Source: Planctomycetota bacterium
GTDB lineage: Bacteria > Planctomycetota > B15-G4 > SIAN01
NCBI GenBank assembly: GCA_031409275.1
Contig: JANNXA010000027.1
Location: 32,001-96,000 of the forward strand
DNA: 64,000 bases
Direction: 5' to 3'
Made by a program: the position numbers and the translations under genes. Below are positions 3,067 through 26,188 of this stretch, one piece after another; positions within the stretch are counted from its first letter, which is position 1, and every line of letters starts with the position of its first letter. The notes under the pieces were generated by a model that was not told the origin of the DNA, ran no database searches, and saw nothing but the letters and a program-made list of their open reading frames with translations.

Positions 3067-3700
3067 TCAGGCGGTGACGGCGGCGCTCGCGGCGACCTGC
3101 TGCTCGAGCTCGCCTGCCAGCGAGTCGAGGCTGTCGGCCGCGTTCTGCGTCTCGGTGAAGCCCTGCGCGGTCGACTCGGCCGTCCCGGCGACGGTGGTCA
3201 CTCCGTCGACGATCTCGCTGACTGCGCGCTGCACGTCGGTCTGGATCGCGACGATGCTCGCCTCGATGGTGGCGTTCAGCGCCGGCAGGTTGGTCTGCTC
3301 GGCGACGTCGTGGATGACCTTGATCACGCGGTCGATCCGGGCGCTGCGCTCGTACAGCCGCCCGACCGTCTCGTTGGTGCTCTTCGCCGCGGCAACCGCC
3401 TGCGGCGCGATCGGTCGCGGACATCGCCACCAGCTTCTCGGCGGCGGCGACGTCCGTCGCGATGGCCGCCACGGTGTCGGGACTCTCCGCGACGAGCGCC
3501 GCCAGCACGTCGGCTGGCAGCGCGTCGTGCATCATGTCCCTGTTGGGCAGGTCGACGACTGCGTCGCTCACGAGCCGCTCGCGATCCAGCGTGGCGCCAG
3601 CGTTCTGCAGCGATTAGTAGCCCTCCGTGCCGACCAGCGCCGCCGTGACGGCGCCGGCGAGACGGATGGCGGTGAGCTTCTTGCGTAGCGTCCAGATCAT
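3067..3700 (-). pseudogene. Degraded methyl-accepting chemotaxis protein
   Basis: ATG 3700 (MIWTLRKKL plus a hydrophobic segment) runs into TAA at 3616-3614. The frame then continues (RDMMHDAL..DV, 4HB sensor-like), followed by a frameshift into the signalling hairpin IKVIHDVAEQTNLPALNATIEA, which lacks the ARAGE-GRGFAVVA core. Confidence 0.75.
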
Positions 3701-3712
3701 GGAGCGGTTCCT

Positions 3713-4564
3713 GTGTCTCGAGATCGACCCAACGACCGACTCGCCGACGATCCGCTGGAAGCAGTTCGGAACCGGAGTGGAGTGGTCGGAACGGCGCGGG
3801 CGAGCTGGATCGTGCTGCCGCCTGCGCACGGAGGCGCCGCGATCGTCCGACCGCTGCTCGAGCGGTTGAAGGCGCAGGTTCGAGTGTGGGCACCGCCGCT
3901 GCCGGCCGACTGCACCGCTCCGGTCGACGTGGCCACGGCGCTCGTCGCGGCGCTCGACGCGGCCGGGTCGGAGCGGGCCGGAGTGATCGGGCTGTCGCTC
4001 GGCGGGCAATTGGCGCAAGCGCTGGTCGAGCATCACCCCCAGCGCGTCGCGGCGCTGCTGTTGGTGGCTTCCGGCGCTCCCGATCGGGCGCGCGGCCGCG
4101 CGTTGGCGCGCAGCGGATGGCTCGCGCGTTGGTTGCCGCGCCGCGTGCTGCTCGCCCGCGCTCGTGCGCAACTGGCGGAGTCGCTGTCCGAAGTCGGAGT
4201 CGCGCGCGGCTCCGAACTTCTTGCCGAGATGGCGGAGGCGACTCGTGCCGAACTGGCGGCACCACGCGCACGACTGCAGGCGAGCGATCGGTTGGGCGCG
4301 GATGCGCCGGCGGCCTTCGCCGCACGACCCGCTCCGGTGCGGCTGATCGAGCTTGCAGCGGACGGCGTGATCGCCGCGTCGGAGTCGGCGCGCTTGCGCG
4401 CGTTGTTCCCGCAGGCCCAGGTCGAGGTGATCCCCGCGCTGCGCCACGCGGCGCTGATCGGCTGGCCGGTGGCGCTGCTCGAGCGCGTCGCCGCCGCGGT
4501 GATGGAGCTGTCGGCGCAGGCGGCGCTTGGACCCGTCAGCGCGGCGCCAACAGGTTCTCGCTGA
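3713..4564 (+). CDS. Alpha/beta fold hydrolase
   Basis: Nucleophile elbow GLSLGG, then HHPQRVAALLL, D-GVI and a C-terminal His (LRHAA). Start uncertain. Confidence 0.7.
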   Translation: MSRDRPNDRLADDPLEAVRNRSGVVGTARASWIVLPPAHGGAAIVRPLLERLKAQVRVWAPPLPADCTAPVDVATALVAALDAAGSERAGVIGLSLGGQLAQALVEHHPQRVAALLLVASGAPDRARGRALARSGWLARWLPRRVLLARARAQLAESLSEVGVARGSELLAEMAEATRAELAAPRARLQASDRLGADAPAAFAARPAPVRLIELAADGVIAASESARLRALFPQAQVEVIPALRHAALIGWPVALLERVAAAVMELSAQAALGPVSAAPTGSR

Positions 4565-7100
4565 AGCGCCGCTCGCCATCGAACCAGCGCGTCGCGACCT
4601 CGAAGCCGGCGTTCGCCGCGAGCGCGTCGAGCTCCTCGGGCGCGTACTTCCACGAGTCCTCGGTGTGGATCGACTCGCCCGCGGCGAAGTCGAAGCGTGC
4701 GCCGAGGAGGTCGAGGTGCACTTCCTGTGCGCGCAGGCTTTCCAGGCGCATCTCGACGCGTCCGTCGTTGGCGTGCCAGCAGGCTCGATGGCGGAACGCG
4801 GTGAGGTCGAAGTCGCCGTCGAGTTCCCGATTGAGGCGCGCCAGCAGGTTGAGGTTGAAGCTTGCGGTGACGCCGGCCGCGTCGTCGTACGCCGCTTCGA
4901 GCGTGGCCGCGTCCTTGCGCAGGTCGGCTCCCAGCAGCAGTCGATCGTCGCGCGCGAGGCGAGCGCGCACGCCGGCCAGGAACTTCGCGGCGGCGTCGCG
5001 CGTGAAGTTCCCGACGTTGCTCCCGAGCCACAGCACGAGCTTCCGGCCCGGTGCCACCGCGTCGAGCTGCGCGATGCCATCGCCGTACTCGGCCGCGATG
5101 GCGACCACCTCGAGCGTCGCGAAGCGCTCGCGCAGCGTCGCTGCACTCTGCGCGAGCGCTGTCGGCGAGATGTCGATCATCACGTAGCGCAGCGTCGCGC
5201 GCTGATCGAGCAGCGCGGCGAGCAGGCGCTGCGTCTTCGCGGCGCTGCCGCTGCCGAGCTCGACGATGGTCGCGTCGGCCGGAGTCGCCGCCGCGATCGC
5301 GTGAGCGTGGCTCGCCAGCAACTCGTCCTCGGCGCGCGTGACGTAGTACTCGGGCGTCGCGCCGATCTCCTCGAACAGGCGTGAGCCGACGTCGTCGTAG
5401 AACCAGCGGCACGGCAGCGACTTCGCTTTCGCCGAGAGTCCCGCCACCGCATCCTCGGCCAGGCGCACGAAGGGCGGGCCGCCCATGCCTTCCCGCCAAC
5501 CCGAAGCGGCGAGGCGCGCCGCGTAGCGCTGCAGGCGGTCCGCGAGCGCGCGATCGCCGTCGACGCGGCCGCGCGCGAGCGCGAGCGTGCCGGCGTCGTC
5601 CGCCTCGAACCAACCGGGGAAGGCGCTGCCCATCACCGCCAGGGTGGCAGGCGTGCGCGCGACCAGCACGGGGCGACCGCTCGCGAGTGCCGGCACCAGC
5701 TCGGCGACGTTGCGAGCGATGGCGACCGACGACGCCACGGAAGCGCGATGCGTTGCGGCCTGCGGCGCGGTGGCGTCGGCCGTGTTCGGAACCAGTTCGA
5801 CTTCGACGGTGGCGACTGCAGCGCGCGCGCGCGCGAACGCGGCGCGGCTCGAGTTCGCGTCGCTGGCGAGCACCCACGCGAGATGGGGGAACGTCTCGGG
5901 ATGGGGCGGCGCGTGCATCACGTCGCCCGGCTCGACGCAAAGTCCCGCCGTGAGCGCCGGCATCGTCGCGATCGCGGCGATGCGCGCGGCCGCGGCGGCG
6001 ACGCCGTGCACGGTGTGTTCGCCGAAATGGCAGCGGTAGGCGAGCGCGTGGCGTCGCTCGTGCGGACCGCCCTCGAGGCGGCGGTAGTCGGGCGACTCGC
6101 CCAACGCGACCGCGATGGCGAGCTCGAACGGGTCGCGACCTGCCGCCTGCGCGAAGAGCTGCCAGAGGCCGTGGTCCTCGCCGAGCCGTCCGTTCACCTC
6201 GATCACCTGCGGTCCGTGCGGCGTCGCCCGCAGCTCGACGGAGAACCCGGCGTGATCGAGTCCGAGCGCCGTCACGGCGCGCTCGCCGGTCGTGCAGAGC
6301 GCGCGGCCGCGGTCGAAATCGAGATCGGCGGGGAGCAGGTAGCCCTCGAAATAGAGATGCGGCGGCGGAGTCTGCACCTGTTCGAGCGCCCCGAAGCAGC
6401 GCGCCTTGCCGTTCCCGACGAAGCCATCGATCTCCATGGGCAGCCCGGCGGCGAAGCTCTCGCACAGGAAATGGCGGGTTGGATCGGGACCGAGTTCGAG
6501 GCCGGCGGCGCGCGCGAACTCGACGAGGCGGGCGACGTCGAGCGAATGGGGAAGCGCCGCCTGCAGCCGCTCGACCGCGGCGTCGAGCTCCTGCGCGTCG
6601 TCGACCTTCACGACGAGACGCGCCATGGTCGACGCGAACGGCTTCAAGATCACCGGAAATCCATGCGCGGCGGCGAAGGCACGTGCTTCGCCGCGTCCGC
6701 TGCAAAGGGCGAACGCCGGTTGTCCGACGTTCGTCGCCGCGAGCGCTTCGCGTGTGCGCGCCTTGCTGATCGTGCGCAGGACCGCGGCAGGCGACGGCGC
6801 GGGCCATCCGCGCGGCGCGGCGAACAGCGATCCGCTCGGCAGCGAGGCTTCGGTCTGCAGCAGGATCCCATCGAGCCGCGCCAGCGCCGGCGCCTTCGCG
6901 AGCGCCACCACCACGTCCGCGACCCGTTCCGCCGGCGGCAGGAGCACCGCATCGGCGTAGAGCGAGCGATCGGCCGGCGCGATCCAGTCGTCGCCGAGGA
7001 TCAGCTCGATCTGGTGCGCGGCGAGCCAGGCGCGGTGGCGCCCCAGCAGTTCGCGACGCACGCGCCCTTCGCCCGGGTAGAGATGGAGCAGCCGTCGCAT
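4536..7100 (-). CDS. egtD: Fusion: ATP-grasp ligase + GT4/SenB-like remnant + L-histidine N-alpha-methyltransferase (EgtD)
   Basis: ATG 7100 preceded by GAGG. ATP-grasp motifs: SKARTRE, FPVILKP, LCESFAAG, VELR..IEVNGRLG. EgtD motifs: KSLPCRWFYDDVGSRLFEEI..PEYYVTRAE, VELGSGSAAKT, WLGSNVGNF, AYDDAAGVTASFNLNLL, IHTEDSWKY. No stop between the domains. Confidence 0.85.
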   Translation of the reverse strand: MRRLLHLYPGEGRVRRELLGRHRAWLAAHQIELILGDDWIAPADRSLYADAVLLPPAERVADVVVALAKAPALARLDGILLQTEASLPSGSLFAAPRGWPAPSPAAVLRTISKARTREALAATNVGQPAFALCSGRGEARAFAAAHGFPVILKPFASTMARLVVKVDDAQELDAAVERLQAALPHSLDVARLVEFARAAGLELGPDPTRHFLCESFAAGLPMEIDGFVGNGKARCFGALEQVQTPPPHLYFEGYLLPADLDFDRGRALCTTGERAVTALGLDHAGFSVELRATPHGPQVIEVNGRLGEDHGLWQLFAQAAGRDPFELAIAVALGESPDYRRLEGGPHERRHALAYRCHFGEHTVHGVAAAAARIAAIATMPALTAGLCVEPGDVMHAPPHPETFPHLAWVLASDANSSRAAFARARAAVATVEVELVPNTADATAPQAATHRASVASSVAIARNVAELVPALASGRPVLVARTPATLAVMGSAFPGWFEADDAGTLALARGRVDGDRALADRLQRYAARLAASGWREGMGGPPFVRLAEDAVAGLSAKAKSLPCRWFYDDVGSRLFEEIGATPEYYVTRAEDELLASHAHAIAAATPADATIVELGSGSAAKTQRLLAALLDQRATLRYVMIDISPTALAQSAATLRERFATLEVVAIAAEYGDGIAQLDAVAPGRKLVLWLGSNVGNFTRDAAAKFLAGVRARLARDDRLLLGADLRKDAATLEAAYDDAAGVTASFNLNLLARLNRELDGDFDLTAFRHRACWHANDGRVEMRLESLRAQEVHLDLLGARFDFAAGESIHTEDSWKYAPEELDALAANAGFEVATRWFDGERRFSENLLAPR

Positions 7101-7181
7101 CGAGGCCTCACGTCGCATGGGAGAGCTGCGAGGGCGCGATCTTCGGCGAGCGGTCGCTCCACTGCTAGTGTTCCGTTCCTC

Positions 7182-8678
7182 ATGTGGCACCCTACTCCCG
7201 CGATTCGCCACCCGCTGCCGCCGGCGAACTGGCCAACGGCGGAGGAGGCGGCGCGCAGTCGCTGGTTCCAGCCGGTGCGCATCGCCGGCGTGACGCTGGC
7301 GCAGCGAACCTGGGTTCCGGCGATGGTGCCGTGGCGCGCCAGCGACGACGGGATGGTGACGGACGACGTCGTCGATTGGTACGCCCGCTTCGCCGCGGGT
7401 CGTCCCGGCGCGATCGTGGTCGAGGCGACCGGCATCCGCGACGTGCCGAGCGGCCCGCTGCTGCGCATCGGCGACGATCGTTTCGTGCCGGGACTGCGCC
7501 GCCTCGTCGAGGCGGTCCGGGACGCGAGCGGTGGCGCGACGCGGCTGTTCGTGCAGTTGATCGACTTCCTCGCGGTCAAGCGGCGGCCGAGCAAGGAGAA
7601 GTACTTCGGCCGTCACCTCGAATTGACGGCGCGCCATCGTTCTGCGCTGGCCGCGGCCACGGCCGACGATTCCTGGCTCGTCGCGCCGGAACCGCAGCTG
7701 CGCGACTTCCTCGCCCGCGCCGACCTGTCGCTGCTCGAATCGCTGCTCGACGCGCGCGAACTCGAGGCCTACCGCTTCGGCTACCGCGAGCGGGTCACCG
7801 ACACGCACCTAAATCACGTGCGCGACTTGCCGACGACGTTGCCGCCGCTCTTCGCCACGGCGGCGAGTCGTGCGCGTCGCGCCGGCTTCGATGGCGTCGA
7901 GCTCCACTACGCGCACGCCTACACCATGGCGTCGTTCCTCTCGCGGCTGAACACGCGCAAGGACGGCTACGGCGGTTCGCGTCCGGAGCGCGTCCGTCTT
8001 GCGCTCGAGGTGGCGCGCGCGGTCCGTCGCGCCGTCGGCAGCGACTACGCGATGGGGGTGCGCTTCCTCGGCGACGAGGGGATCGAGGGAGGCAGCCGGA
8101 TCGACGATGCGACGTGGTTCGCGCTCGAGTTCGCGCGCGCCGGCTTCGACTTCCTCTCGATCAGCAAGGGCGGCCGCTTCGAGGACGCCAAGCAGCCGGC
8201 GGTCGGCGTCGCGGTCTATCCCTACACCGGTCCGAGCGGCTACGAGTGCATGCCCACCGTGCTCTCCGACGCGCAGGGGCCGTTCGGCCGCAACGTGCCG
8301 CTCGCGGGCGCGATCCGTCGCCGACTGCGTGAAGTCGGCTACGACACGCCGGTGGTCACGGCGGGGGGCATCGCCACCTTCGAGCAGGCCGAGCAGATCC
8401 TCGCCCACGGCGACGCGGACATCGTCGCCGCCGCTCGCCAGTCGCTCGCCGATCCCGACTGGTTCCTGAAGATCCGCCTCGGCCATGGCGCCGCGGTCCG
8501 TCGCTGCGAGTTCACCAACTACTGCGAGGGGCTCGACCAGATGCACAAGCAGGTCACCTGCAAGTTGTGGGATCGGATCGACCGCGACGGTGCCGACGTC
8601 AAGCGGAGCCTCGATGGCCGCCGCCTCATCGCGCCGGCGTGGGTGCCACCGCCCGAATTGGCGCGTCCGACGAACTGA
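7182..8678 (+). CDS. NADH:flavin oxidoreductase (Old Yellow Enzyme family) with C-terminal Cys cluster
   Basis: PAMVP, AGFDGVELHYAHAYTMASFLS..N.R.DGYGGS, ADIVAAARQSLADPDW, C-terminal CEFTNYC..VTC. ATG 7182 within ORF 5748..8678. Confidence 0.9.
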   Translation: MWHPTPAIRHPLPPANWPTAEEAARSRWFQPVRIAGVTLAQRTWVPAMVPWRASDDGMVTDDVVDWYARFAAGRPGAIVVEATGIRDVPSGPLLRIGDDRFVPGLRRLVEAVRDASGGATRLFVQLIDFLAVKRRPSKEKYFGRHLELTARHRSALAAATADDSWLVAPEPQLRDFLARADLSLLESLLDARELEAYRFGYRERVTDTHLNHVRDLPTTLPPLFATAASRARRAGFDGVELHYAHAYTMASFLSRLNTRKDGYGGSRPERVRLALEVARAVRRAVGSDYAMGVRFLGDEGIEGGSRIDDATWFALEFARAGFDFLSISKGGRFEDAKQPAVGVAVYPYTGPSGYECMPTVLSDAQGPFGRNVPLAGAIRRRLREVGYDTPVVTAGGIATFEQAEQILAHGDADIVAAARQSLADPDWFLKIRLGHGAAVRRCEFTNYCEGLDQMHKQVTCKLWDRIDRDGADVKRSLDGRRLIAPAWVPPPELARPTN

Positions 8679-8687
8679 GCCGGTCGC

Positions 8688-11600
8688 TCAGCTCGACTCG
8701 TCGGTGGGCGCCAGCGCTTCCTGCGCCGACTTCCACCACGCGCGCCAGCGGGCGACCGCCTCCTTGCGCAGCCGCTCAGCGGCGTTGGCGTCGAACGCCT
8801 GGCTGCGTCCGGCGAGTGCGACCAGGAGCTCGTCGGCCCACGCGCGCGCCTGCGCCTCTTCCAGTTCGAGGCAGACCAGCAGCAGCGGCACCAAGGCGCG
8901 GCGACCGTTCTCGCGCAGCGCGGCGAGGACGGCGGCGTAGCGCTCCGGCTCGCTCGCCTTCGCCGCGGCGATCCGTGCCGGCAGCGCATGGGCATCGAGG
9001 AGGCGCAGCCCTTCGCGAACATCCGCCCGTCGCGCCGGCTCGGTGGAGAGGAAGCCCGCCTCGTCGAGCAGCATGTCGATGGCGCTGCGGTTCGACAGCG
9101 CGCGCATCGCCCGGGCGATCTCCTCCTTCACGCCGCCGTCCGGCTCGATCGTCTGGCGCGCGATCAGTGGAGCGAGAGCGGCGATGCTGCCGAGCTGGCC
9201 GAGCGTGCGTGCGGCGAAGCGGCGCACGTGGACGCGCTCGTCGGCGAGGCGGTGGGCGAGATCGGGGATGCAATCGGGGTGAGCCGCGCGGCCGACGGCA
9301 CGGAAGAGGCGCTCCTGCACCGTGGCATCCGGTTCGTCGAGCAGGCCGAGCAGGTCGGTGAGGATCGACGAGGTGGCCACGTGGGCGAGGACCTCTGCGG
9401 CGTCCTGACGCGCGACGAGGTCGCCGCTGCTCCGGAGCAGCTGCATCAGCGGCGCCTGCGCGGAGGTGCCGAGCTCCTCTTCGATGCGGCGCATCGCCAC
9501 CGCGCGCTCGACTTCGCTGCCACCACCGCCGAACTTGGCGAGGAGCGGCTTGGCGAGGTCCGCGAGCGAGCCGGTGACCGAGAGACTGCGCACGTCGGGG
9601 AACTTGTCGTAGCGGTAGTTGACCTCGAGCATCAACGCGCTCATCGCGGTCGCGTAGACGCGGCCGCCGTACTCCTGGTGGGCTCCTTGCGAGTCGAATG
9701 AGCCGCGCTTGCAGCCCTCGTTCTGCTTGTGGATCCGCTGCAGCAACGCCGGCACCAGCGCGTCGTTCCAGCGCTGCCACGAGTCGCCTCCGATCTGGAA
9801 GAGCGCCAACGTCGCGTAGTAGGCGAAGTAGAGGTCGGTGTACTCGGCGCGTGGCAGCTGCCGCAGGCACCACTCCTTGCCGACGGTGAGAGCGGGGTGG
9901 TTGCTCGGTGTGCCCAGCGCCTGGCGGCAGACCATGCCGACGGCGGTGAGGCGCGGCTCCTGCGTCGCGAAGTCGAGCGGCTGCTGGTAGCCGACCCGGT
10001 AGTAGGCCGGTTCCGTGACGCGCTCGATCCACTCGCGCGCCCCGCGGAAGCCGGCGACCTTGAGGCGGGCGTCGTGCGCAGCGACCAGCGCGAGCACCAC
10101 CCAGCCGGTGACCGAGGTGTCGGCGTCGGTGCGCGCCTCGTAGCGCCAGCCGCCGAGGTCGGGATGCTGCGCGAAGATGAGGAAGTCGACGGCGCGCTGC
10201 GCGGCCTGCTTCAGGAACGGGTCGCCGCTGGTGCCGTAGCCCTCGGCCAGCGCCTGCGTGGCGAGCGCGTGCTGGTACATGTACCAGCCGCTGGTCGTGG
10301 TGAACTTGCCGTGGTCCTGCAGTCGCGAGACCAGGAAGTCGAGCCCTCGTTTCACTGCGTCCTGGTGCGGACCGAGTTCGATGGTGCTGCCGCCATGGAT
10401 CAACGCCAGCAGCGACATGCCGGTCAACCCGACGTCGAAGTCGTAGGCGCCGGCGCCGCTGCACGCTTCGCCGCGGCAACGGGTCGCGAAGCCCTGCGCG
10501 CCGAAGCTCCCGTTGGCGGATTGATGGCGGACGAGCCAGTCGAGCGCCTGGGCGACGGCCGCCTCGGTCTGGCGACTGCCCCCCAGCCGTCGCGCCAGTG
10601 CGAAGCGCTCCTCGGGCGAGAAGACCTTGATCGGCGCATCTGGCGACTGGCGCTTCTTGCCGCTGGCGAGCGGAGAGGCGGCGTCGAACGCCTCGATCTC
10701 TTCTGGCTTCGTTTCGAGGCGCGGGGTGAACTCCTCGCGCGCCCCTTTCCACCAGTCGCGCCACCGCTTGACGGCTGCCGCGCGCGCGGGCGACTCGAGG
10801 TTGGCGCCAAAGCCGAAGCTCTTCGCGGTGACGTGCAGCAGCGCGAGGTTCGCCTCGCCGCGCACCACGCTCGAGGAATCCTCGAGCAACTCCAGCAGCG
10901 TTTCGACGGCAAGGTCGCTCGCCTGCGGGATCCCCTCCGTGACCGCCGAAACCGCCAACGCGCGCGCGAGCCGCGTCGCGTAGCCGCGCTTCTCGGCGGC
11001 GACGTCGGTGCGTGCCGTCGTGAGCGCGCGACTGATGGCCGGCAACGCCTTGCTGCCGAGCTCGAGCAACGCTTCGAGTTCGTCGCGGCAAGTGTCGTGC
11101 TTCGTGCGTGCCAGCTTCGCCAGCGCGGTCTCGATCGCCTGCTGCTGCTCGAACGTCAACGTCGGGAACCAGCGGCGCCACCCCCAATCGGTGCCGGCGA
11201 AGTTCTGCGTCCAGAGTCCGTGCGTCGTGTCCGCACCGACACCGAGGTGCGGCCCTGCCGAGACCATGCCGCGATGGTGGCCGGGGCTGTGGTACCACGC
11301 TTCGAACGCGCCGCGTCCGCCGCCTCCGCCCGCGTAGCAGTTCTCGCCGGCGCCGCCGCCGTAGCCGGCGACGCGCACCCGATCGGAGGGGGTGCGCAGC
11401 TTGTCGGTCGGTGAATCGTGGCCGAAGTATTGGAGGTCCTTCATCTCCTGCGAGTGGCCGCGCGCTGCGACCACGAGGCGCTCGTCGAGTTCGAAGGGGG
11501 CGAGCAGCAGCGTGCGGCGGTACTCGTTGGTCGCGACGTAGTTGGCGTACTCCTCCGGATCGGCGCTCGTCAGCGCGCGCGCGTTGTAGAGGTCGAGCGC

Positions 11601-12983
11601 GTCCCACTCGAAGTCGCGCAGCACGATCCGCTCCCACGGCGAGAGGTCGGCGCGCAGCAGTTCTTCGGCGCGCTGCAGGAACGACAGCACGCGGCCCGCT
11701 TTCCAGTGAACCAGCGCGAAGAGCACCTCTTCGAGGCCGGCGCCCGTGCGTCCGGGCAGCACGTGCACCTTCGCGCCTTGCGGCGAGACGGCAGGGAACG
11801 GATCGGCCACCTCGCCGTGCCAGGCGCGCCGGTAGTCGAGCAGTGCCGCCAGCGCCGGTTCGAGCCGCTCGAAGCGAGCGAGCAGCGCCTCGGCGGCGCG
11901 CGGATCGAGGCGCGCGAAGGCGATCTCGTCGTTCTTTCGCAGCTGGGCGTAGAGCTTCGCCTTCTCGGCCAGCTGCTTCCTGAACTCGTCGACCTGCGGC
12001 TGTTGCGGCTTGTCGTACTTGGAGATCAGGTCGAGCGCTGCGGTCGCGATCGGCTGCCAGGCGTCGATCTGGAACAGTCGCTGGCGACGCAGGCTGCTGC
12101 TTTGCCGGTAGGACTGGAGCCAATCGCGCGGCTCCTCGTAGAGCTGCGCGAGCTCGACGACGACGCGGTCGGTCGCCGTCGCGAGGCGCGGTGCGAAGGC
12201 GTCGATGGCACCCGCGGGCGCCGCGATCACCTCGTCGAGCCGCAGCGGAGCGCCGTCGGCGAGCGCCTGTTCGAGGCGCACCGCCAACGCTTCGAGCGCG
12301 CGCCGACGATTGACTTCGGCGGCCGGCAGGAAGGCGGTGCGATGCCATTCGTAGCCACCGTTGGGAGTCGCTTCGCCGCGCTCCTTCGCCAGCAGCGCGT
12401 CGATCCGCTCCTTCTGCGCCGGGTCGGCCATGAGCGCGACGTGGAGCTGCTCGATGGCGGCGGGGTCGAGGTCGCGCCAGAACGCGAAGCGCGCCAGCTC
12501 GACGCGTTCGCCGGGTGCGAGCGGCAGGGTGACGAGGAACGGGAACGTGAGCGATGGCGGGAAGCTCGCCCACGGTTTCTTCGCGACGACGCCTTCGCGC
12601 GTGAGCGTGACGCCGTCGAGGTCGGCGCCGCTCACCACCAGGTCACCGTCGGGCCATCGCAGCGGCTGACCCTGGTGGGCGGCGTCCTCGATGCGTGCGA
12701 CGAGCTGCGAGAAGAGGCTCGCCTCGGCGAGGAAGTCGGCGGCATCGCTCGCCAGCTGGCGCGCGAGCGCTTCATCGGTGATCCGCGCGACGAGTGTCGC
12801 GAGCTCCGCCTTCGCCGGCGCGAAGGCCAGCGCACGCCGCGCCTCCTGCAGACGGAGCTGCAGCGCCGCGGTCTCTTCGGGGGTGACGGGTGCCGTGGCG
12901 GCGACCGGCGCTGCGACCGGCGGCGCGGGGGCCGCTGCCTCCTGAATCGCCAGGACGACGAGGCTGAAGATCAGTTCGAACAT
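8688..12983 (-). CDS. Large exported multidomain protein: CAP/SCP domain + prenyltransferase/squalene-cyclase repeats + HEAT repeats
   Basis: N-terminal signal-like stretch. CAP motifs: AARGHSQEM..YFGH..GEN..WYHSPGHHRGM. Prenyltransferase repeats: ALDWLVRHQSANGSF, GGWRYE..DTSVTGW, GGRVYATAM. C-terminal HEAT repeats (VRRFAARTLGQLG). Confidence 0.8.
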   Translation of the reverse strand: MFELIFSLVVLAIQEAAAPAPPVAAPVAATAPVTPEETAALQLRLQEARRALAFAPAKAELATLVARITDEALARQLASDAADFLAEASLFSQLVARIEDAAHQGQPLRWPDGDLVVSGADLDGVTLTREGVVAKKPWASFPPSLTFPFLVTLPLAPGERVELARFAFWRDLDPAAIEQLHVALMADPAQKERIDALLAKERGEATPNGGYEWHRTAFLPAAEVNRRRALEALAVRLEQALADGAPLRLDEVIAAPAGAIDAFAPRLATATDRVVVELAQLYEEPRDWLQSYRQSSSLRRQRLFQIDAWQPIATAALDLISKYDKPQQPQVDEFRKQLAEKAKLYAQLRKNDEIAFARLDPRAAEALLARFERLEPALAALLDYRRAWHGEVADPFPAVSPQGAKVHVLPGRTGAGLEEVLFALVHWKAGRVLSFLQRAEELLRADLSPWERIVLRDFEWDALDLYNARALTSADPEEYANYVATNEYRRTLLLAPFELDERLVVAARGHSQEMKDLQYFGHDSPTDKLRTPSDRVRVAGYGGGAGENCYAGGGGGRGAFEAWYHSPGHHRGMVSAGPHLGVGADTTHGLWTQNFAGTDWGWRRWFPTLTFEQQQAIETALAKLARTKHDTCRDELEALLELGSKALPAISRALTTARTDVAAEKRGYATRLARALAVSAVTEGIPQASDLAVETLLELLEDSSSVVRGEANLALLHVTAKSFGFGANLESPARAAAVKRWRDWWKGAREEFTPRLETKPEEIEAFDAASPLASGKKRQSPDAPIKVFSPEERFALARRLGGSRQTEAAVAQALDWLVRHQSANGSFGAQGFATRCRGEACSGAGAYDFDVGLTGMSLLALIHGGSTIELGPHQDAVKRGLDFLVSRLQDHGKFTTTSGWYMYQHALATQALAEGYGTSGDPFLKQAAQRAVDFLIFAQHPDLGGWRYEARTDADTSVTGWVVLALVAAHDARLKVAGFRGAREWIERVTEPAYYRVGYQQPLDFATQEPRLTAVGMVCRQALGTPSNHPALTVGKEWCLRQLPRAEYTDLYFAYYATLALFQIGGDSWQRWNDALVPALLQRIHKQNEGCKRGSFDSQGAHQEYGGRVYATAMSALMLEVNYRYDKFPDVRSLSVTGSLADLAKPLLAKFGGGGSEVERAVAMRRIEEELGTSAQAPLMQLLRSSGDLVARQDAAEVLAHVATSSILTDLLGLLDEPDATVQERLFRAVGRAAHPDCIPDLAHRLADERVHVRRFAARTLGQLGSIAALAPLIARQTIEPDGGVKEEIARAMRALSNRSAIDMLLDEAGFLSTEPARRADVREGLRLLDAHALPARIAAAKASEPERYAAVLAALRENGRRALVPLLLVCLELEEAQARAWADELLVALAGRSQAFDANAAERLRKEAVARWRAWWKSAQEALAPTDESS

Positions 12984-13279
12984 GGGCCCTGAGTTAGCGC
13001 ATTTCCTTCGTTTCGTCACGCGCGCGACGCCATCGACCCGCGCATCGGCGATCGCGGGCTAGCCCGGCTTGTTCATGATCCCCGTCGCGAGACGACGGGA
13101 TGTCGGCGCTGGACGAGGAGGGGACGTGCGACTTCGACGATGCGGGTTTGCTGACCCGCTGAGGAAGAAGCGCGCGTTCTCGACGAAGTACGGAGTCGGC
13201 AGACCGAGCCGCAGCAGGGGTTTCATGAAAAAGACGGGCTAGAGTCTTTGCCCGTTCTGAACTCGGTGGGGCGCGCGAC

Positions 13280-16200
13280 GTGAAACGAGACTGGCCGTTG
13301 TTGCTGGCGTTGACCATGACCGGGCTGGCCGCGTTGGCGCTCGAGGTGCTGTGGTCGCGAGCGATGATCCCGTGGGTCGGCGGCACCGCGTTGTCGCAGA
13401 TCACCACCGTCGGGATCTACATGGCCGGCCTCTTCGTCGGCTCGGCCTGCGCGGTGCCCCGCCTGGCCAAGGTCGCCGATCCGCGGGCGACCTTCTTCCG
13501 GACCGAGCTGGCCGCCGCGCTGCTGTCGCTGCTCGCGGTGCTGTGCATGCCGCTCGCCGACCCGCTCTTCGCCCTCTTCTCGCGCGGCGAGCTGCTCGGC
13601 AGCGCGACCGGTTCGGTGCTGCGCGGGCTGGTGGGCGCCGGGTTGATGATCCCGGCCACCATCTTGATGGGCTACTCGTTCCCGCTCGCCATCGCCGCCT
13701 TCGAGAAGAGCCAGGGCGGTCGCGGCAATGCGGCGCTCGCCTATGGCGTGAACACGGTGGGCGCGACGCTCGGCACGTTGATCGGCGGCTTCCTGCTGGT
13801 GCCCAAGCTCGGCGTCGTGAACGGCGCGCTCGCCGTCGTGATCGCCGATGTCGTCGCGCTGGTGGTGTTGATGCGCCTGCCGCCGCCACCACCGGTCGAC
13901 GAGCGACTCGCGCGGCGCGACGATCCGCAGCGCCGCGAAGCGATGCCGGCGAGATCGGGCGCGGCCGGGCCCGCTCCCGCTGCGGCGACCAACGATTGGC
14001 CGATGCTGCTCTCGATCTTCATCGGCGGCATGGTGTCGCTCGGATTGCAGGCCGTGCTGTTCCGCGTGCTCGGGTTGCTGCTCGGCCCCACGGCCCGCGC
14101 CTTCACCGTCGTGCTCGCGGTCTACGTGGGCGGGCTTGGTCTTGGGTCGCTGCTGGCCAAGCGCTTCGTCGAGCGCGGCACGCGCAGCGCGAGCGCGCTC
14201 TACCTCGCCTGCTGGTGGATCGTCGGCCTGTGGGGAATGCTGGTCCTGATGCGCGTCGAGGCGCTGACCGGGATCGTCTCCGATCGCCGCGGCGCGGGCA
14301 CCTTCTCGCTGTCCGATCAGCTCCAGCTGCGCGCGCTGATCGCCACCGTGGTCCTGCTGCCGATCACGGCGGCCTTCGGTGCGTCGTACTCGGCGGCCGT
14401 CGCTGCCGCACCCTCCGGCGATGCGCGCCGCGCGAGCCGCCTCTACGCGGCGCTCACGCTCGGCAACATCGTCGGGCTCGGGATCGTGGCGTGGGGCGTG
14501 CTCCCGAACTTCCGGCTCGATCGCGCGCTGCTGCTGGTGCTGGCCGTGGCGTTGGTGACACCGCTGCCGGCGCTGGTCCGATTGCCGCTCGCGCGCGCCA
14601 CGCGCGTCGCGGCCGCGGTGGCGGGCGTCGCGATGGCGCTCGCCGCGTGGCTCGCGCTGCCGGGTTGGCCGCTCAAGGTGATGCACACGGCGGCCTACAT
14701 CCCGGGCTATGCCGAAGGCGCGCCGCGCCAGACCAAGGAAGTGGTCCGCTTCCATCGCTCGGCGTTCGAGACCTCGGTCACCGTCGTGCAGGTGGGGGAG
14801 GACCGTTTCCTGCAGCTCGACGGCAAGACCACCGGATCGACCGACGTGGACGACCAGTCGACGCAAGGGCTGCTCGGCGCATTGCCGACGGCGCTCCATC
14901 CCGACCCCAAGCGCGCCTTCGTCATCGGACTCGGCACCGGCCACACGCCGGCGGAGGTGCTGCGGTACGCCGCAGTGGAGCACGTCGATTGCGCCGAGAT
15001 CAGCCCGGAAGTCGTCGACACCATGTCGCTGTTCGCCGCCGTGAACCGCCGCTGCGACCGCGATCCGCGCTTCCGGATGCTCGAAGCGGATGGCCGGACG
15101 GTCCTGCGTTACGGCGGTGATCGCTACGACCTCGTCATCTCCGAGCCGAGCAACGTCTGGATCCCGGGAGTCGCCCACCTCTTCACGCTCGAGTCGTTCA
15201 GCGACGTGCGTGGCTGCCTCGATCCCGAGGACGGCCTGTGCCTGCAGTGGGTGCAGGGCTACGGCATGCAGATCGACACGCTGCGCACCATCGTGCGCAC
15301 CTTCCTGACCGTCTTCCCGCACGCGTCGCTGTGGTTCTCGTCGTTCGGGCAGCCCGACATCTTCCTGCTCGGGTCGATGGCGCCCTTCGCGATCGACTTC
15401 GACGCGCTCGAGAAGCGGTTGGCGGCGGCGCAGGTGCCCGACGCCATCGCGGGCGGCCGACCGCTCGACGCGATCGAGCTGCTGCGCCATTTCGTGGCCG
15501 GCCCGGCGACCTTGCGCGCGTTCGCCGGCGATGGCCCGCTCACGACCGATGCGCGGCCGAGTCTCGAGTACGCAGCGGAAGAGGCGCTGATGGGCAACGG
15601 CGAATCGCCCGGCACCAACCTCATCGCGAACCTCGCCAAGCCGCCCTTCGAGCTGCTCGCCGACGGCGGCGCGTCGTTGCCGGCGGCGACGCGGGCGACG
15701 ATCGAGCGGCGCGCGGCGGCCAATCGCGAGATCGTGCTGCGTCTCGCCGACACCTCGCGGGCTGCGGCGTTGCTGTCGTCGCGCGGGCTTGCCGAGTGCG
15801 AGGCGCTGCTGGCCCGTTTCCCCGACGATCGTGCGGCGCGCTACGCGATGGTCGGGGCGCTGATGTACGGCTTGTCGCTGCAGTTGCAGCAGGGCGAGAG
15901 CGCGGAGCTGCTTGGCCTGATGAGCCGCGCGGCGAAGCTCGATCCGGACCATCCCGAGTCGCTCAAGTTCGAGGCGATCCGCCGGCTGCCGGAGCGCGAC
16001 GCCGCGCCGGTGCTCGCGTTGATGGACCGCCATGCGGCGGCGCTCGAGCCGTGGCGGCAGATGGCGCAAGTCGATCGCGCGCGCTGCCTCGTCCAGCTCG
16101 GCCAGATTCCGACCGCCATTGTGCAGCTCGAGGAAGTGGTGGCGCGCGACCCGTGGTTCATGTCGGCGTGGCGCGAGCTCGAGAACGCCGCGACGCAGGC

Positions 16201-16342
16201 CGGTCGTCTGGCGCTCGCCGCGAAGGCACGCGCCCGCCTCGACGAGCTCGGCGACGAAGGCCGCAGCCGAGCCAGCCAGGAACGGTTGGAGGCGGAGATG
16301 GCGGAACTCGCGGCCGCGGAGTCCCATCCAGCCGAGCGTTGA
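13280..16342 (+). CDS. Fused MFS-like membrane domain / spermidine synthase-like methyltransferase with C-terminal TPR-like region
   Basis: GLAALALEVLWSR, YGVNTVGATLG, LQLDGK, VIGLGTGHT, DCAEISPEV, DGRTVL..YDLVISEPSN.W..GVAHLFT.E. GTG start. Confidence 0.85.
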   Translation: MKRDWPLLLALTMTGLAALALEVLWSRAMIPWVGGTALSQITTVGIYMAGLFVGSACAVPRLAKVADPRATFFRTELAAALLSLLAVLCMPLADPLFALFSRGELLGSATGSVLRGLVGAGLMIPATILMGYSFPLAIAAFEKSQGGRGNAALAYGVNTVGATLGTLIGGFLLVPKLGVVNGALAVVIADVVALVVLMRLPPPPPVDERLARRDDPQRREAMPARSGAAGPAPAAATNDWPMLLSIFIGGMVSLGLQAVLFRVLGLLLGPTARAFTVVLAVYVGGLGLGSLLAKRFVERGTRSASALYLACWWIVGLWGMLVLMRVEALTGIVSDRRGAGTFSLSDQLQLRALIATVVLLPITAAFGASYSAAVAAAPSGDARRASRLYAALTLGNIVGLGIVAWGVLPNFRLDRALLLVLAVALVTPLPALVRLPLARATRVAAAVAGVAMALAAWLALPGWPLKVMHTAAYIPGYAEGAPRQTKEVVRFHRSAFETSVTVVQVGEDRFLQLDGKTTGSTDVDDQSTQGLLGALPTALHPDPKRAFVIGLGTGHTPAEVLRYAAVEHVDCAEISPEVVDTMSLFAAVNRRCDRDPRFRMLEADGRTVLRYGGDRYDLVISEPSNVWIPGVAHLFTLESFSDVRGCLDPEDGLCLQWVQGYGMQIDTLRTIVRTFLTVFPHASLWFSSFGQPDIFLLGSMAPFAIDFDALEKRLAAAQVPDAIAGGRPLDAIELLRHFVAGPATLRAFAGDGPLTTDARPSLEYAAEEALMGNGESPGTNLIANLAKPPFELLADGGASLPAATRATIERRAAANREIVLRLADTSRAAALLSSRGLAECEALLARFPDDRAARYAMVGALMYGLSLQLQQGESAELLGLMSRAAKLDPDHPESLKFEAIRRLPERDAAPVLALMDRHAAALEPWRQMAQVDRARCLVQLGQIPTAIVQLEEVVARDPWFMSAWRELENAATQAGRLALAAKARARLDELGDEGRSRASQERLEAEMAELAAAESHPAER

Positions 16343-16401
16343 CTTGCGTAGCGACCGCTCCGATCGTTCGCCGCATCGACCTCCAGGAGAACTTGGGTTC
16401 C

Positions 16402-17394
16402 ATGACCGCCGAATCGATCGATGCTGCGAGCGACGCCCGGCGCGAGGCCGTGCGCGACGTCTACGCCCAGGCCGCGCTCGAGCCCGACACGAGCCTCTGC
16501 TGCGTCGATGGCGGCACGTGGACGCTGCCCGACCTCGTCTTCCCGCCGCGCATGCTGGAGATGAACTACGGCTGCGGCTCGACCGTGAACCCCTCCGATC
16601 TTTCCGGGACGCGGCCGATCCTCTACGTCGGCGTCGGCGGCGGCCTCGAGGCGCTGCAGTTCGCCTACTTCCGTCGCCAGCGCGGCGGCGTCATCGCCGT
16701 CGACCCGGTCGGCGAGATGCGCGCGGCCGCGCGCGCCAACCTGCTCGAAGCGGAACGGCTCAATCCGTGGTTCAAGAGCGAGTTCGTCGACGTGGTCGAT
16801 TGTCGCGCCGAGGAGCTGCCGGTCGCCGACCACACCGTCGACGTGGTGGCGCAGAACTGCCTCTTCAACGTCTTCGTCGACGGCGATCTCGCCAAGGCGC
16901 TCGCCGAGGTCGCGCGCGTGCTGCGCGTCGGCGGTCGTTTCTCCACCAGCGATCCCGTCACTCCGCGCCCGATCCCGCAGGCGCTTCGCGATGACCACAC
17001 GCTACGGGCGCGCTGCGTGTCCGGCTGCGTGCTCTACGACGAATACCTCGCGGCGATCCATGCCGCCGGCTTCCAGCAGATCGTGGTGCGGGCGCGGCGG
17101 CCGTATCGACTCCTGACGCCGGCCGAGTTCCCCGCGCTGCGCGAGGAGCTGCTGCTCGAGAGCCTTGAAGTGCTGGCCATCAAGGGGCCGCGCCTCGAGG
17201 CGAAGCCCGACCTCTACACCGGTCGCTGCGCCACCTTCGTCGGCGCGGGCACCTGGTATCGCGACGACAAGTTCCCGTTCCCATCCGGGACGCCGATGCA
17301 GGTCTCCGATCGAGTCGCGCTCGAGCTCGGCGCGCGCGCCGACTTCCGCGTCACTCCGCCGACGTTCCACGCGCGCGGGCCGGGGTGCTGCTGA
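16402..17394 (+). CDS. arsM: Arsenite S-adenosylmethionine methyltransferase (arsenosugar-cluster type ArsM)
   Basis: VY..AA..P...LCC, MNYGCGSTV, LYVGVGGGLEALQFAYF, AQNCLFN, RCVSG and a C-terminal GCC. ATG 16402 within ORF 15238..17394. Confidence 0.8.
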   Translation: MTAESIDAASDARREAVRDVYAQAALEPDTSLCCVDGGTWTLPDLVFPPRMLEMNYGCGSTVNPSDLSGTRPILYVGVGGGLEALQFAYFRRQRGGVIAVDPVGEMRAAARANLLEAERLNPWFKSEFVDVVDCRAEELPVADHTVDVVAQNCLFNVFVDGDLAKALAEVARVLRVGGRFSTSDPVTPRPIPQALRDDHTLRARCVSGCVLYDEYLAAIHAAGFQQIVVRARRPYRLLTPAEFPALREELLLESLEVLAIKGPRLEAKPDLYTGRCATFVGAGTWYRDDKFPFPSGTPMQVSDRVALELGARADFRVTPPTFHARGPGCC

Positions 17395-18509
17395 TGGCCG
17401 GCGACCCGAAGCGAGTGCGTTTTCACGTCATCGGCGGCTTCCTCGGCGCCGGCAAGACGACCGCGCTGCTGCGCCTCGCCGCGGAGTTCCAGGCGCAGGG
17501 GCTGAAGGTCGGCCTCATCACCAACGACCAGGCCGCGAACCTCGTCGACACGGGGGCGGCGCGCGCGGGGGGCTTTCGCGTCGAGGAGGTCGCCGGCGCC
17601 TGCTTCTGCTGCAAGTTCGATGACCTCGCGCGCCTTGCCGAGAAGCTGCGTGTCGAAGATCGCCCCGACGTGCTGATCGGCGAGCCGGTCGGCAGCTGCA
17701 CCGATCTCGCGGCGACCGTCGTGAAGCCGTTGCAGCGCCTCTACGGCGACCGCTACTCGCTCGCGCCCTACTCGGTCCTCGTCGATCCGACGCGCGCGCG
17801 GCAGATCGTGCTCGATCGCGGATTCGGCGGCTTTTCCGCCAAGGTGGCGTACGTCTTCCAGAAGCAGCTCGAGGAGGCCGACCTGATCGGCCTCAACAAG
17901 ATCGACCTGCTCACGGCTGCGCAGCGCGACGAACTGCAGGGCGCGCTCGCTCGCGAGTTCCCGAAGGCGCGCGTGCTGCCGCTTTCCGGCCTCACCGGCG
18001 CCGGCTTCGCGGAGTGGCGCGCTGCGCTCGCCGAGCCGGTCGCGTCCGGCGGCAACGCGGCCGAAGTCGACTACGACCTCTACGCGGAAGGCGAAGCGGA
18101 ACTCGGTTGGTTGAACCTCGCGTTCGATCTCGCGGCCGCGCGGCCGTTCGCGGCCGAGGTCCTGGTGCGCGATGCCGTGACCGCGTTGCAGCGGGATCTG
18201 CAGGGCCGCGGCGAAGTCGCGCACGCGAAGGTGCTGTTCGAATCGAACGGCGCGACGGTGATCGCCAACCACGTGGGCGGCGGGACGAGCGTGCGCGTGT
18301 CGCGGCCAGGTGCCTTGCTGGCGAGCACGGGGCGATTGGTGGTGAACGCTCGTGTCCACCTTGCGCCCGAGCTCCTGCGCGCCGCAGCGGACCGCGCGCT
18401 CGCCGAGGTCCTCGCGGCGCACGGTGCCGTCGCCACCTTGATCGAGGCCGCGCAATTTCGGCCGGGGCGGCCGGTTCCGACCCACCGCGACCTGCCGGTC
18501 GAGGGATGA
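17394..18509 (+). CDS. CobW/HypB/UreG-family (G3E) GTP-binding metallochaperone
   Basis: GGFLGAGKTT, LITNDQ, GACFCCKF, EPVGSCTD, LNKIDL. ATG overlaps the arsM stop (TGATG). Confidence 0.88.
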   Translation: MAGDPKRVRFHVIGGFLGAGKTTALLRLAAEFQAQGLKVGLITNDQAANLVDTGAARAGGFRVEEVAGACFCCKFDDLARLAEKLRVEDRPDVLIGEPVGSCTDLAATVVKPLQRLYGDRYSLAPYSVLVDPTRARQIVLDRGFGGFSAKVAYVFQKQLEEADLIGLNKIDLLTAAQRDELQGALAREFPKARVLPLSGLTGAGFAEWRAALAEPVASGGNAAEVDYDLYAEGEAELGWLNLAFDLAAARPFAAEVLVRDAVTALQRDLQGRGEVAHAKVLFESNGATVIANHVGGGTSVRVSRPGALLASTGRLVVNARVHLAPELLRAAADRALAEVLAAHGAVATLIEAAQFRPGRPVPTHRDLPVEG

Positions 18510-24440: not shown

Positions 24441-24444
24441 TGGC

Positions 24445-26187: not shown

Positions 26188-26188
26188 C

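Follow-up and report, generated by a model that had tools for sequence, protein, structure and literature searches.

We describe an unnamed family of ATP-grasp ligases that very probably works in the metabolism of thio- and seleno-histidine betaines, starting from a member encoded in a 64,000-nucleotide stretch of a Planctomycetota genome (genome G000; assembly GCA_031409275.1, contig JANNXA010000027.1, positions 32,001 to 96,000 of the forward strand; hereafter the window). There the ligase forms the first part of an 854-amino-acid (aa) open reading frame (ORF) that ends in the histidine methyltransferase EgtD, which opens the route to ergothioneine and selenoneine, and a sequence-only reading of this DNA had put the fusion forward as its best candidate for a new system, a possible pathway to histidine-betaine conjugates. 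Gene neighbourhoods in several clades uphold the link between the ligase and histidine betaines; the fusion itself is most probably a deletion by-product. What is new is the ligase family and its tie to the histidine-betaine antioxidants, not the fusion. Our preferred reading, to which we assign a probability of roughly 40%, is that the ligase would take ergothioneine or selenoneine (or hercynine), activate it at its carboxylate and yield an amide conjugate. The ORF and its parts are as follows.

4536..7100, minus strand: three-part ORF, ATP-grasp ligase::SenB remnant::EgtD (translation, Pfam, NCBIfam, AlphaFold model)
5790..7100, minus strand: L-amino-acid-ligase-type ATP-grasp domain, aa 1–437 (Pfam, PDB sequence match, structure match)
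5490..5714, minus strand: degenerate C-terminal SenB remnant, now a linker, aa ~463–537 (TIGR04348 match, segment search, model)
4539..5465, minus strand: EgtD histidine N-alpha-trimethyltransferase domain, aa 546–854 (TIGR03438, residue alignment)

Gene neighbourhoods of the ligase family

A search with aa 1–437 returned 58 matches at E ≤2e-50 (39–60% identity), followed by a drop to 5e-17 (73 matches, 7998 candidates). A profile search of 1.84 billion representatives recovered the same compact ligase family, which in the ESM Atlas is one 146-member 'hypothetical protein' cluster with Planctomycetota as its commonest phylum. Relatives bear Planctomycetota names, and most family members are stand-alone genes.

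Loci were found by ligase alignment alone, in 61 of 67 candidate metagenome stretches, 6 of 42 genomes of the order and 9 of 401 genomes of the phylum (in the phylum sample four candidates were scored per genome; L129, a weak fragment, was dropped). The 74 loci form 57 clusters at 90% identity, 35 of them informative (at least 1.5 kb upstream), and a cluster was counted if any member qualified. In 19 of the 35, egtD, a sulfoxide or selenoxide synthase, senB, the synthase MES or an EgtU-like permease is encoded within 4 kb of the ligase, as it is in 14 of the 20 clusters with both flanks of at least 3 kb; about 0.3% of the G000 genome lies equally near egtD or egtB.

The partners and their order vary from clade to clade. 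senA exceeded its cut-off at 11 ligase loci, and OvoA profiles fell far below cut-off for the adjacent synthases. senA lies directly upstream of the ligase in G045, G380, L075, L076, L078 and L083; egtD–senA lies upstream, with a flavin adenine dinucleotide (FAD) oxidoreductase downstream, in G359 and L124; the order is ligase–senB–egtD–senA in G002, G242, L069 and L074; and egtB is upstream in G005. In a clade of lower GC content, L103, L109 and L110 carry egtD together with a molybdopterin::cysteine-desulfurase gene, the architecture of the anaerobic synthase MES (PMC9516567; this and the other papers are cited for the passages that deal with these enzymes). OpuAC-permease fusions, with EgtUC as their best PDB match (E 4e-43, against 1e-38 to 1e-34 for betaine/choline binders), are encoded near the ligase in L101, L103 and L106. 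Altogether the association recurs across five or more separate clades, involving four partner types and varied gene orders, and the genes for the Old Yellow Enzyme (OYE) family protein and CstA near the window's ORF track one clade.

The association extends to whole genomes. In the phylum sample, egtD was found in 8 of 9 ligase carriers and in 91 of 401 genomes overall (Fisher p 4e-5, overstated by kinship), and senA in 5 of 9 carriers and 31 of 401 overall (Fisher p 2e-4, likewise overstated by kinship). SenA, type II EgtB and MES draw on different sulfur or selenium donors and share the hercynine scaffold (PMC9516567, PMC10903977). A ligase that lies beside all three synthase types, the methylase and an importer therefore most simply acts on the hercynine scaffold, and its travelling with the trimethylating enzyme and three unrelated sulfur- or selenium-inserting chemistries points to tailoring of the betaines themselves.

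Several of these loci hold further genes. The MES-like gene at L110:~3360-6760 is a 1133-codon open frame that ends in a C-terminal cysteine motif and is followed by egtD; L109 and L103 have the same type, and in L103 the MES-like gene and egtD are followed by an EgtU-like ABC importer. A FAD-dependent oxidoreductase gene (DAO/ThiO-like) lies directly 3' of the ligase in one clade (L081:9185-10087, L115:9122-10021, L124:8963-9748, L145:4088-5011 and L147 at ~9634), and in L081 and L115 another conserved gene follows it, which in L115 encodes a solute-binding protein. At L055:8489-12735 (G009) the order is senA, senB, a deacetylase-like gene (with histone-deacetylase-type motifs by eye) and egtD; the G009 ligase lies on another contig end.

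The fused frame and its enzymes

Positions 4536–7100 of the minus strand translate in full as a single stop-free 854-aa frame. The open frame extends upstream as far as 7808, and the ATG at 7100 agrees as the start with the N termini of all three aligned fused homologues. The motifs cited in the sequence-only reading were located in both domains: ILKP at 151–154, ESFAAG at 214–219 and IEVNGRLG at 300–307 in the ligase, and WFYD at 566–569, PEYY at 583–586, ELGSGS at 614–619 and HTEDSWKY at 812–819 in EgtD. The Pfam scan that it called for gave ATP-grasp_4 at aa 147–307 (E 2.5e-8, 34.2 bits, cut-off 27) and Methyltransf_33 at aa 548–851 (E 7e-105). Both domains of its two-domain anatomy thus stand, and the SenB remnant at aa ~463–537 had been overlooked. 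A misassembly, stop or frameshift at the junction had been considered; we found none. Contigs of runs X1 and X2, which may be the source of the assembly itself, cover 4300–7400 unbroken with 0 differences, and a contig of run X3, from the same study, covers 5182–6139 with 0 differences. The three-part ORF recurs, at 70% identity, in genome G004, from another species of the genus, and together with the run contigs this rules out a misassembled fusion. A promoter and terminator scan of 4300–7400 gave 0 and 0 sites. The full-length AlphaFold model comprises two confident domains and a low-confidence middle (mean predicted local distance difference test score (pLDDT) 90.4, predicted template modelling score (pTM) 0.62).

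The EgtD domain is complete (TIGR03438, 351.9 bits against a cut-off of 290.9, model positions 2–297 of 301), and no second EgtD was found in G000. In alignment, the histidine-binding residues Y39, F47, Y56, N166, Y206, T213, E282 and S284 of Mycobacterium tuberculosis EgtD, which hold the imidazole, amine and carboxylate of histidine (PMC8593015), are kept as Y568, F576, Y585, N698, Y738, T745, E814 and S816; T163 is replaced, by N695. Since the residues that bind the free carboxylate and amine (Y56, Y206, S284 and N166) are all retained, the fused EgtD should act on free histidine rather than on a histidine peptide, and it is predicted to make hercynine. Synthesis of a tryptophan or tyrosine betaine is unlikely because the L-histidine pocket is intact. 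Elsewhere, L064:6972-8705 (G026) encodes, near a canonical egtD, a second EgtD-like domain below cut-off behind another S-adenosylmethionine methyltransferase, and similar matches occur in G034, G038, G039 and G013.

The absence of egtB, egtC and senA from the window, as first reported, was borne out: the sole egtB of G000 over cut-off stands alone on contig C14, and the sole senA-profile match is that same egtB, below the senA cut-off. This EgtB is nearest to the Chloracidobacterium (C. thermophilum) enzyme (E 7e-115; the gamma-Glu-Cys type gives 2e-33), whose substrate is cysteine (PMC10903977). Neither egtC nor senA or senB over cut-off was found in G000, which is 92.9% complete. G000 has selD at C40:252211-253134 (L016), with an in-frame TGA that is probably a selenocysteine codon; selD with an in-frame TGA also occurs in G045, G242, G359 and G380. 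With senA and a functional senB gone, G000 is not a carrier of the selenoneine cluster.

The ligase domain has BL00235 (3VOT) as its best PDB sequence match (E 4.8e-28). Its model has a pLDDT of 96 and reaches its highest listed query TM-score, 0.77, with 3VOT_A; by E-value, Foldseek ranked 4DIM first, a structure annotated as phosphoribosylglycinamide synthetase. The three-domain ATP-grasp fold, the ATP/Mg residues and the catalytic arginine are all present: K113, K153, E214, E289, E301, N303 and R305 are 97–100% conserved in 141 family rows, which are partly redundant and were compared with an outgroup of 52 ordinary L-amino acid ligases. The donor site is remodelled. A Glu found in 84% of the outgroup is I, F, L or V at 251 in the family, a His found in 69% is Tyr 254 (99% of the family), and a His found in 94% is Ser 287 (87% of the family). 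We take the Glu/His/His set to belong to the acyl-donor region, as in BacD, and if so the hydrophobic/Tyr/Ser region would suit a trimethylammonium donor. Further changes from the outgroup are Gly to Trp or Glu at 308 and Arg to His at 406, a family-specific DxxRxxxF helix insert and a C-terminal APPHPxxxPH motif. The pocket motifs are uniform across all gene contexts, and because they are identical in every context the family looks isofunctional. The window ligase keeps 63 of 65 family-conserved columns, and branch lengths of fused genes (0.29/0.22) and unfused sisters (0.30/0.20) are alike; the ligase is thus not decaying. A selenocysteine in the ligase was also considered: three genome matches were flagged '1 TGA', but the TGA is the terminal stop in all 74 domain matches examined.

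Under our preferred reading, the fused EgtD would make hercynine from free histidine, and in G000 the cysteine-using EgtB on contig C14, with a general C–S lyase, would sulfurise it. ATP-grasp ligases activate carboxylates by forming the acyl phosphate, from which the acyl group passes to an amine (PMC9486568, PMC6920838). As the nitrogen of hercynine, ergothioneine and selenoneine is quaternary, the betaine can only be the carboxylate partner in such a reaction; the ligase would spend ATP to activate the betaine carboxylate and couple it to an amine, giving a betaine amide. If the ligase does work in histidine-betaine metabolism, we put the betaine as acyl donor at somewhat below even odds.

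Origin of the fusion

The segment between the two domains is a remnant of SenB that serves as a linker. TIGR04348 (SenB) matches it only at model positions 230–292 (E 7.5e-5, 21.9 bits against a cut-off of 300). Searched against all six-frame ORFs of G000 and five SenB proteins, the segment matched itself and each of the five SenBs (E 6e-8 to 7e-4); it hit none of the remaining G000 ORFs, not even the other family 4 glycosyltransferases (GT4) of that genome. About 95 residues between ligase and EgtD are missing from the three other aligned fused proteins. SenB, the selenosugar synthase, is a two-domain GT-B enzyme that uses N20/T23, K158, E231 and E239 (PMC10891094); the remnant lacks the N-terminal domain and the K158 region, and its EGGA..E (E231/E239) motif is degenerate. 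Such losses rule out a working glycosyltransferase. The zone is also the least confident in the model, with pLDDT mostly 40–70 over aa 441–510.

Relatives record how the remnant came about. In L069, whose flanks are as in the window, OYE and ATP-grasp genes are followed by senB:egtD and senA, then the hydrolase, CstA, AhpC and VTT genes; senA sits there between egtD and the hydrolase gene, the place from which it is gone in the window. In G002 the ATP-grasp gene ends in a stop and is followed by a full SenB:EgtD gene (both parts over cut-off) and by senA at the contig end. G000 and G004 have ATP-grasp::remnant::EgtD with the same flanks and without senA, in G003 and L070 the ATP-grasp gene and egtD are unfused neighbours, and G005 has egtB followed by ATP-grasp::EgtD without the remnant. 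A SenB-to-EgtD junction motif is common to G000 and the SenB:EgtD fusions. From these comparisons we are confident that the fusion descends from an ATP-grasp–senB:egtD–senA operon from which senA and the greater part of senB disappeared; presumably an in-frame deletion that took out the ligase stop and the bulk of senB joined the ligase to EgtD. We regard the fusion as an evolutionary scar left by a selenoneine operon, and the locus offers a clean snapshot of such an operon decaying back to ergothioneine with the ligase kept.

The tree indicates that ligase–EgtD fusions arose at least twice. Remnant-bearing fusions are sister to unfused genes (SH-like approximate likelihood ratio test (SH-aLRT) 100), and remnant-free fusions belong to another clade. 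Monophyly of the eight fused rows was rejected by an approximately unbiased (AU) test (p-AU 0.0004, on 26 of 75 tree rows with a quick LG+G4 tree, the group being set by architecture and a FastTree tree having been inspected beforehand), which rules out a single origin. Longer fused forms were confined to P0001 and P0002 among 7994 candidates. In P0092 (740 aa), a distant family member, the ligase is joined to a divergent Methyltransf_33 domain (E 1.4e-12) without the WFYD and PEYY motifs, which makes three independent fusions to EgtD or an EgtD-like fold.

SenB::EgtD fusion proteins are encoded at L052:414-2489 (G002), L069:9332-11326, L074:9350-11305 and L146:9697-11676 (G242); the copy in G242 carries an in-frame TGA in the early part of EgtD (a broken gene or a sequence error). 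A membrane protein of the VIT1 family, extended N-terminally by ~110 aa, is encoded upstream of senA or the ligase in L054, L077, L078, L080, L083, L085, L095 and L116. The order VIT1–senA–ligase is shortened to VIT1–ligase in five loci, a second case of senA lost and ligase kept.

The genes next to the fused ORF served as syntenic markers.

7182..8678, plus strand: divergent OYE-family gene, a marker in close relatives only (Pfam, synteny)
3713..4564, plus strand: convergent alpha/beta hydrolase gene, a syntenic marker (Pfam, synteny)

The OYE-family gene is probably outside the pathway. OYE, CstA, AhpC, VTT and the hydrolase were rejected as pathway members, being syntenic in the close clade only. 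Elsewhere in the window, a short methyl-accepting chemotaxis signalling fragment that looks truncated lies between CstA and the hydrolase (3067-3531, minus strand). A 1443-aa protein with CAP, prenyltransferase/squalene-cyclase-like and HEAT domains (8688-13019, minus strand) is syntenic in L049, L069 and L086. Positions 13280-16342 (plus strand) encode a membrane protein fused to a spermidine-synthase domain and tetratricopeptide repeats; after it, at 16400-18509 (plus strand), come genes for an ArsM-like methyltransferase (by eye) and a GTPase of the CobW type. Two tandem paralogues at 22626-26220 (minus strand) each match a copper type II monooxygenase domain weakly at the C terminus, and one of them has a redoxin domain at its N terminus.

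Alternative roles and known systems

Several observations weigh against a ligase that makes betaine amides. The Gly-rich P-loop, GxGSxG in the outgroup, is missing from the family, which has S-T/A-M/L-x-R-L instead (STMARL in the window), and a conserved Lys is Gln at 241; with these two changes, the family may catalyse something other than amide ligation. The remodelled pocket is a weak argument: by eye, the canonical Glu/His pair is missing also from AshB, an enzyme that takes Phe with its alpha-amine free, and because of this, and because the role of the donor residues is carried over from BacD, the remodelling is not diagnostic. Sixteen of the 35 informative clusters have no pathway partner, the largest, lower-GC clade (27 loci, many short) has one at only 5–6 loci, and the EgtU-like call does not stand clear of betaine/choline binders. 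Among the sampled genomes, the ligase occurs in only 8 of the 91 with egtD and 5 of the 31 with senA; it is accessory and needed for neither antioxidant. G384 (90% complete) has the ligase with no egtD and no full-length synthase match. Confident domain–domain packing is absent from the full-length model (pTM 0.62), so that channelling is unsupported by it. Finally, a natural ergothioneine carboxamide conjugate was not found in the literature searched, which covered few subscription papers.

Four other roles were weighed against the betaine amide ligase. The ligase might have the opposite polarity, that of the dipeptide ligases AshB and TgiB, and acylate the alpha-amine of histidine, 2-thiohistidine or 2-selenohistidine before trimethylation. 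AshB is of the same broad L-amino-acid-ligase type, adjoins a sulfoxide synthase and makes Phe-2-thiohistidine, as TgiB makes gamma-Glu-2-thiohistidine (PMC13674229), and the changes at the donor site could equally accommodate a non-standard acid. We consider this unlikely, because the partner enzymes here (SenA, C. thermophilum-type EgtB and MES) use hercynine in the cited papers, whereas the clusters published in PMC13674229 all use OvoA-branch synthases acting on histidine, because at least two fusions join the ligase to EgtD, which removes the required amine, and because AshB has, by eye, a Gly-rich P-loop and an HxE motif that are both missing from the family. A role without a stable amide product, in which the ligase phosphorylates, thioesterifies, recycles or merely binds the betaine or its oxidation product, would accommodate the atypical P-loop and the Lys-to-Gln and Arg-to-His changes from ordinary L-amino acid ligases, the neighbouring genes for a FAD oxidoreductase (5 loci) and the iron exporter VIT1, and the adjacent uptake transporter. 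Such a role is rather improbable: the ATP/Mg residues and catalytic arginine of ATP-grasp ligases are invariant, and dipeptide ligases give both the best sequence match and the highest TM-score.

The remaining two roles would separate the ligase further from the betaines. It might have an unrelated job, the fusion being a deletion accident tolerated because both domains fold. The degenerate linker of a deletion product, the clusters with no pathway neighbour, the ligase of G384 and the likewise syntenic OYE, CstA and VTT genes of close relatives are all compatible with such a hitchhiker. It is nonetheless a poor candidate in view of the association in at least five clades with four partner types and differing gene orders, when OYE and CstA are confined to one clade, and of the genome-level enrichment for egtD and senA. 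Very improbable, in our judgement, is that the ligase stands in for EgtA (gamma-Glu-Cys) or SenC (selenophosphate). Neither egtA nor senC lies beside any of the ligase loci examined, and both gamma-glutamyl peptide synthesis and phosphate transfer lie within the range of ATP-grasp enzymes; yet the G000 EgtB is nearest the cysteine-using type with egtC not found, selD is over cut-off in G000 and in four of five senA- and ligase-bearing genomes tested (all four near-complete), and the ligase is kept beside MES and EgtB, which require neither precursor.

The sequence-only reading had known of no characterised fusion of this kind, and none appeared in the literature searched; the ligase family and a betaine amide are likewise undescribed there, although the network in Figure 2 of PMC13674229 might hold a family member. 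Ergothioneine and selenoneine are treated as end products. We tentatively propose, with less assurance than for the reaction itself, that the family would be the first enzyme to conjugate ergothioneine and selenoneine through their carboxylate, recruited to the SenA/SenB, EgtB and MES routes and to uptake, and giving undescribed sulfur and selenium betaine amides that include the first tailored selenoneine, possibly a new selenium metabolite.

In fold, the family resembles the L-amino acid ligases BL00235 (3VOT), BacD/YwfE (3VMM) and RizA (4WD3), sharing their three domains (TM-score 0.67–0.77), ATP/Mg residues and catalytic arginine. It differs from them in its 14–18% structural identity, the lost P-loop, the replaced donor-site Glu/His/His and the added helix and C-terminal motif. 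The EgtD domain matches full-length mycobacterial EgtD (PDB 4UY6, 4PIM, 7SCF) in its histidine pocket and differs in the 545-aa N-terminal extension of the fused protein and in having Asn for Thr163, and the EgtB on the other contig of G000 is type II-like, as is that of Chloracidobacterium (6QKI, 6O6L), with no EgtC. Similar to the senABC selenoneine cluster, relatives hold senA and senB over cut-off and egtD in one operon, of which the window keeps a scrap of SenB. Unlike in that cluster, senC of the relatives lies at a separate genomic site, their senB is fused to egtD and an ATP-grasp gene has been added, and G000 has lost senA and functional senB with selD present; in the sen preprint (bioRxiv 10.1101/2022.04.13.486033), the passages concerned mention egtD only as co-localised.

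The closest known systems are the ash (actinothioneine; AshA/AshB) and tgi (thioglutine; TgiA/TgiB) clusters (PMC13674229; Abbott et al., JACS 2026), in which an ATP-grasp gene likewise lies beside a non-haem-iron sulfoxide/selenoxide synthase. According to the passages concerned, ATP-grasp genes adjoin 0.3% of such synthases, tailoring of this class is exceedingly rare, its ligases require an unmethylated amine, and those other than AshB and one YbdK-like enzyme are RimK-like; neither Planctomyc nor EgtD appears as a word in the text of its supplement. By eye, the motifs of our family differ from those of AshB and TgiB, and RimK profiles match it weakly. The ash and tgi synthases are of the OvoA branch and provide 2-thiohistidine as the amine (C-terminal) partner, to which AshB adds Phe and TgiB gamma-Glu. 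By contrast, the family described here adjoins hercynine-based SenA, type II EgtB and MES, EgtU-like transporters and EgtD, to which it is also fused, and its proposed polarity would be the reverse of that of AshB and TgiB.

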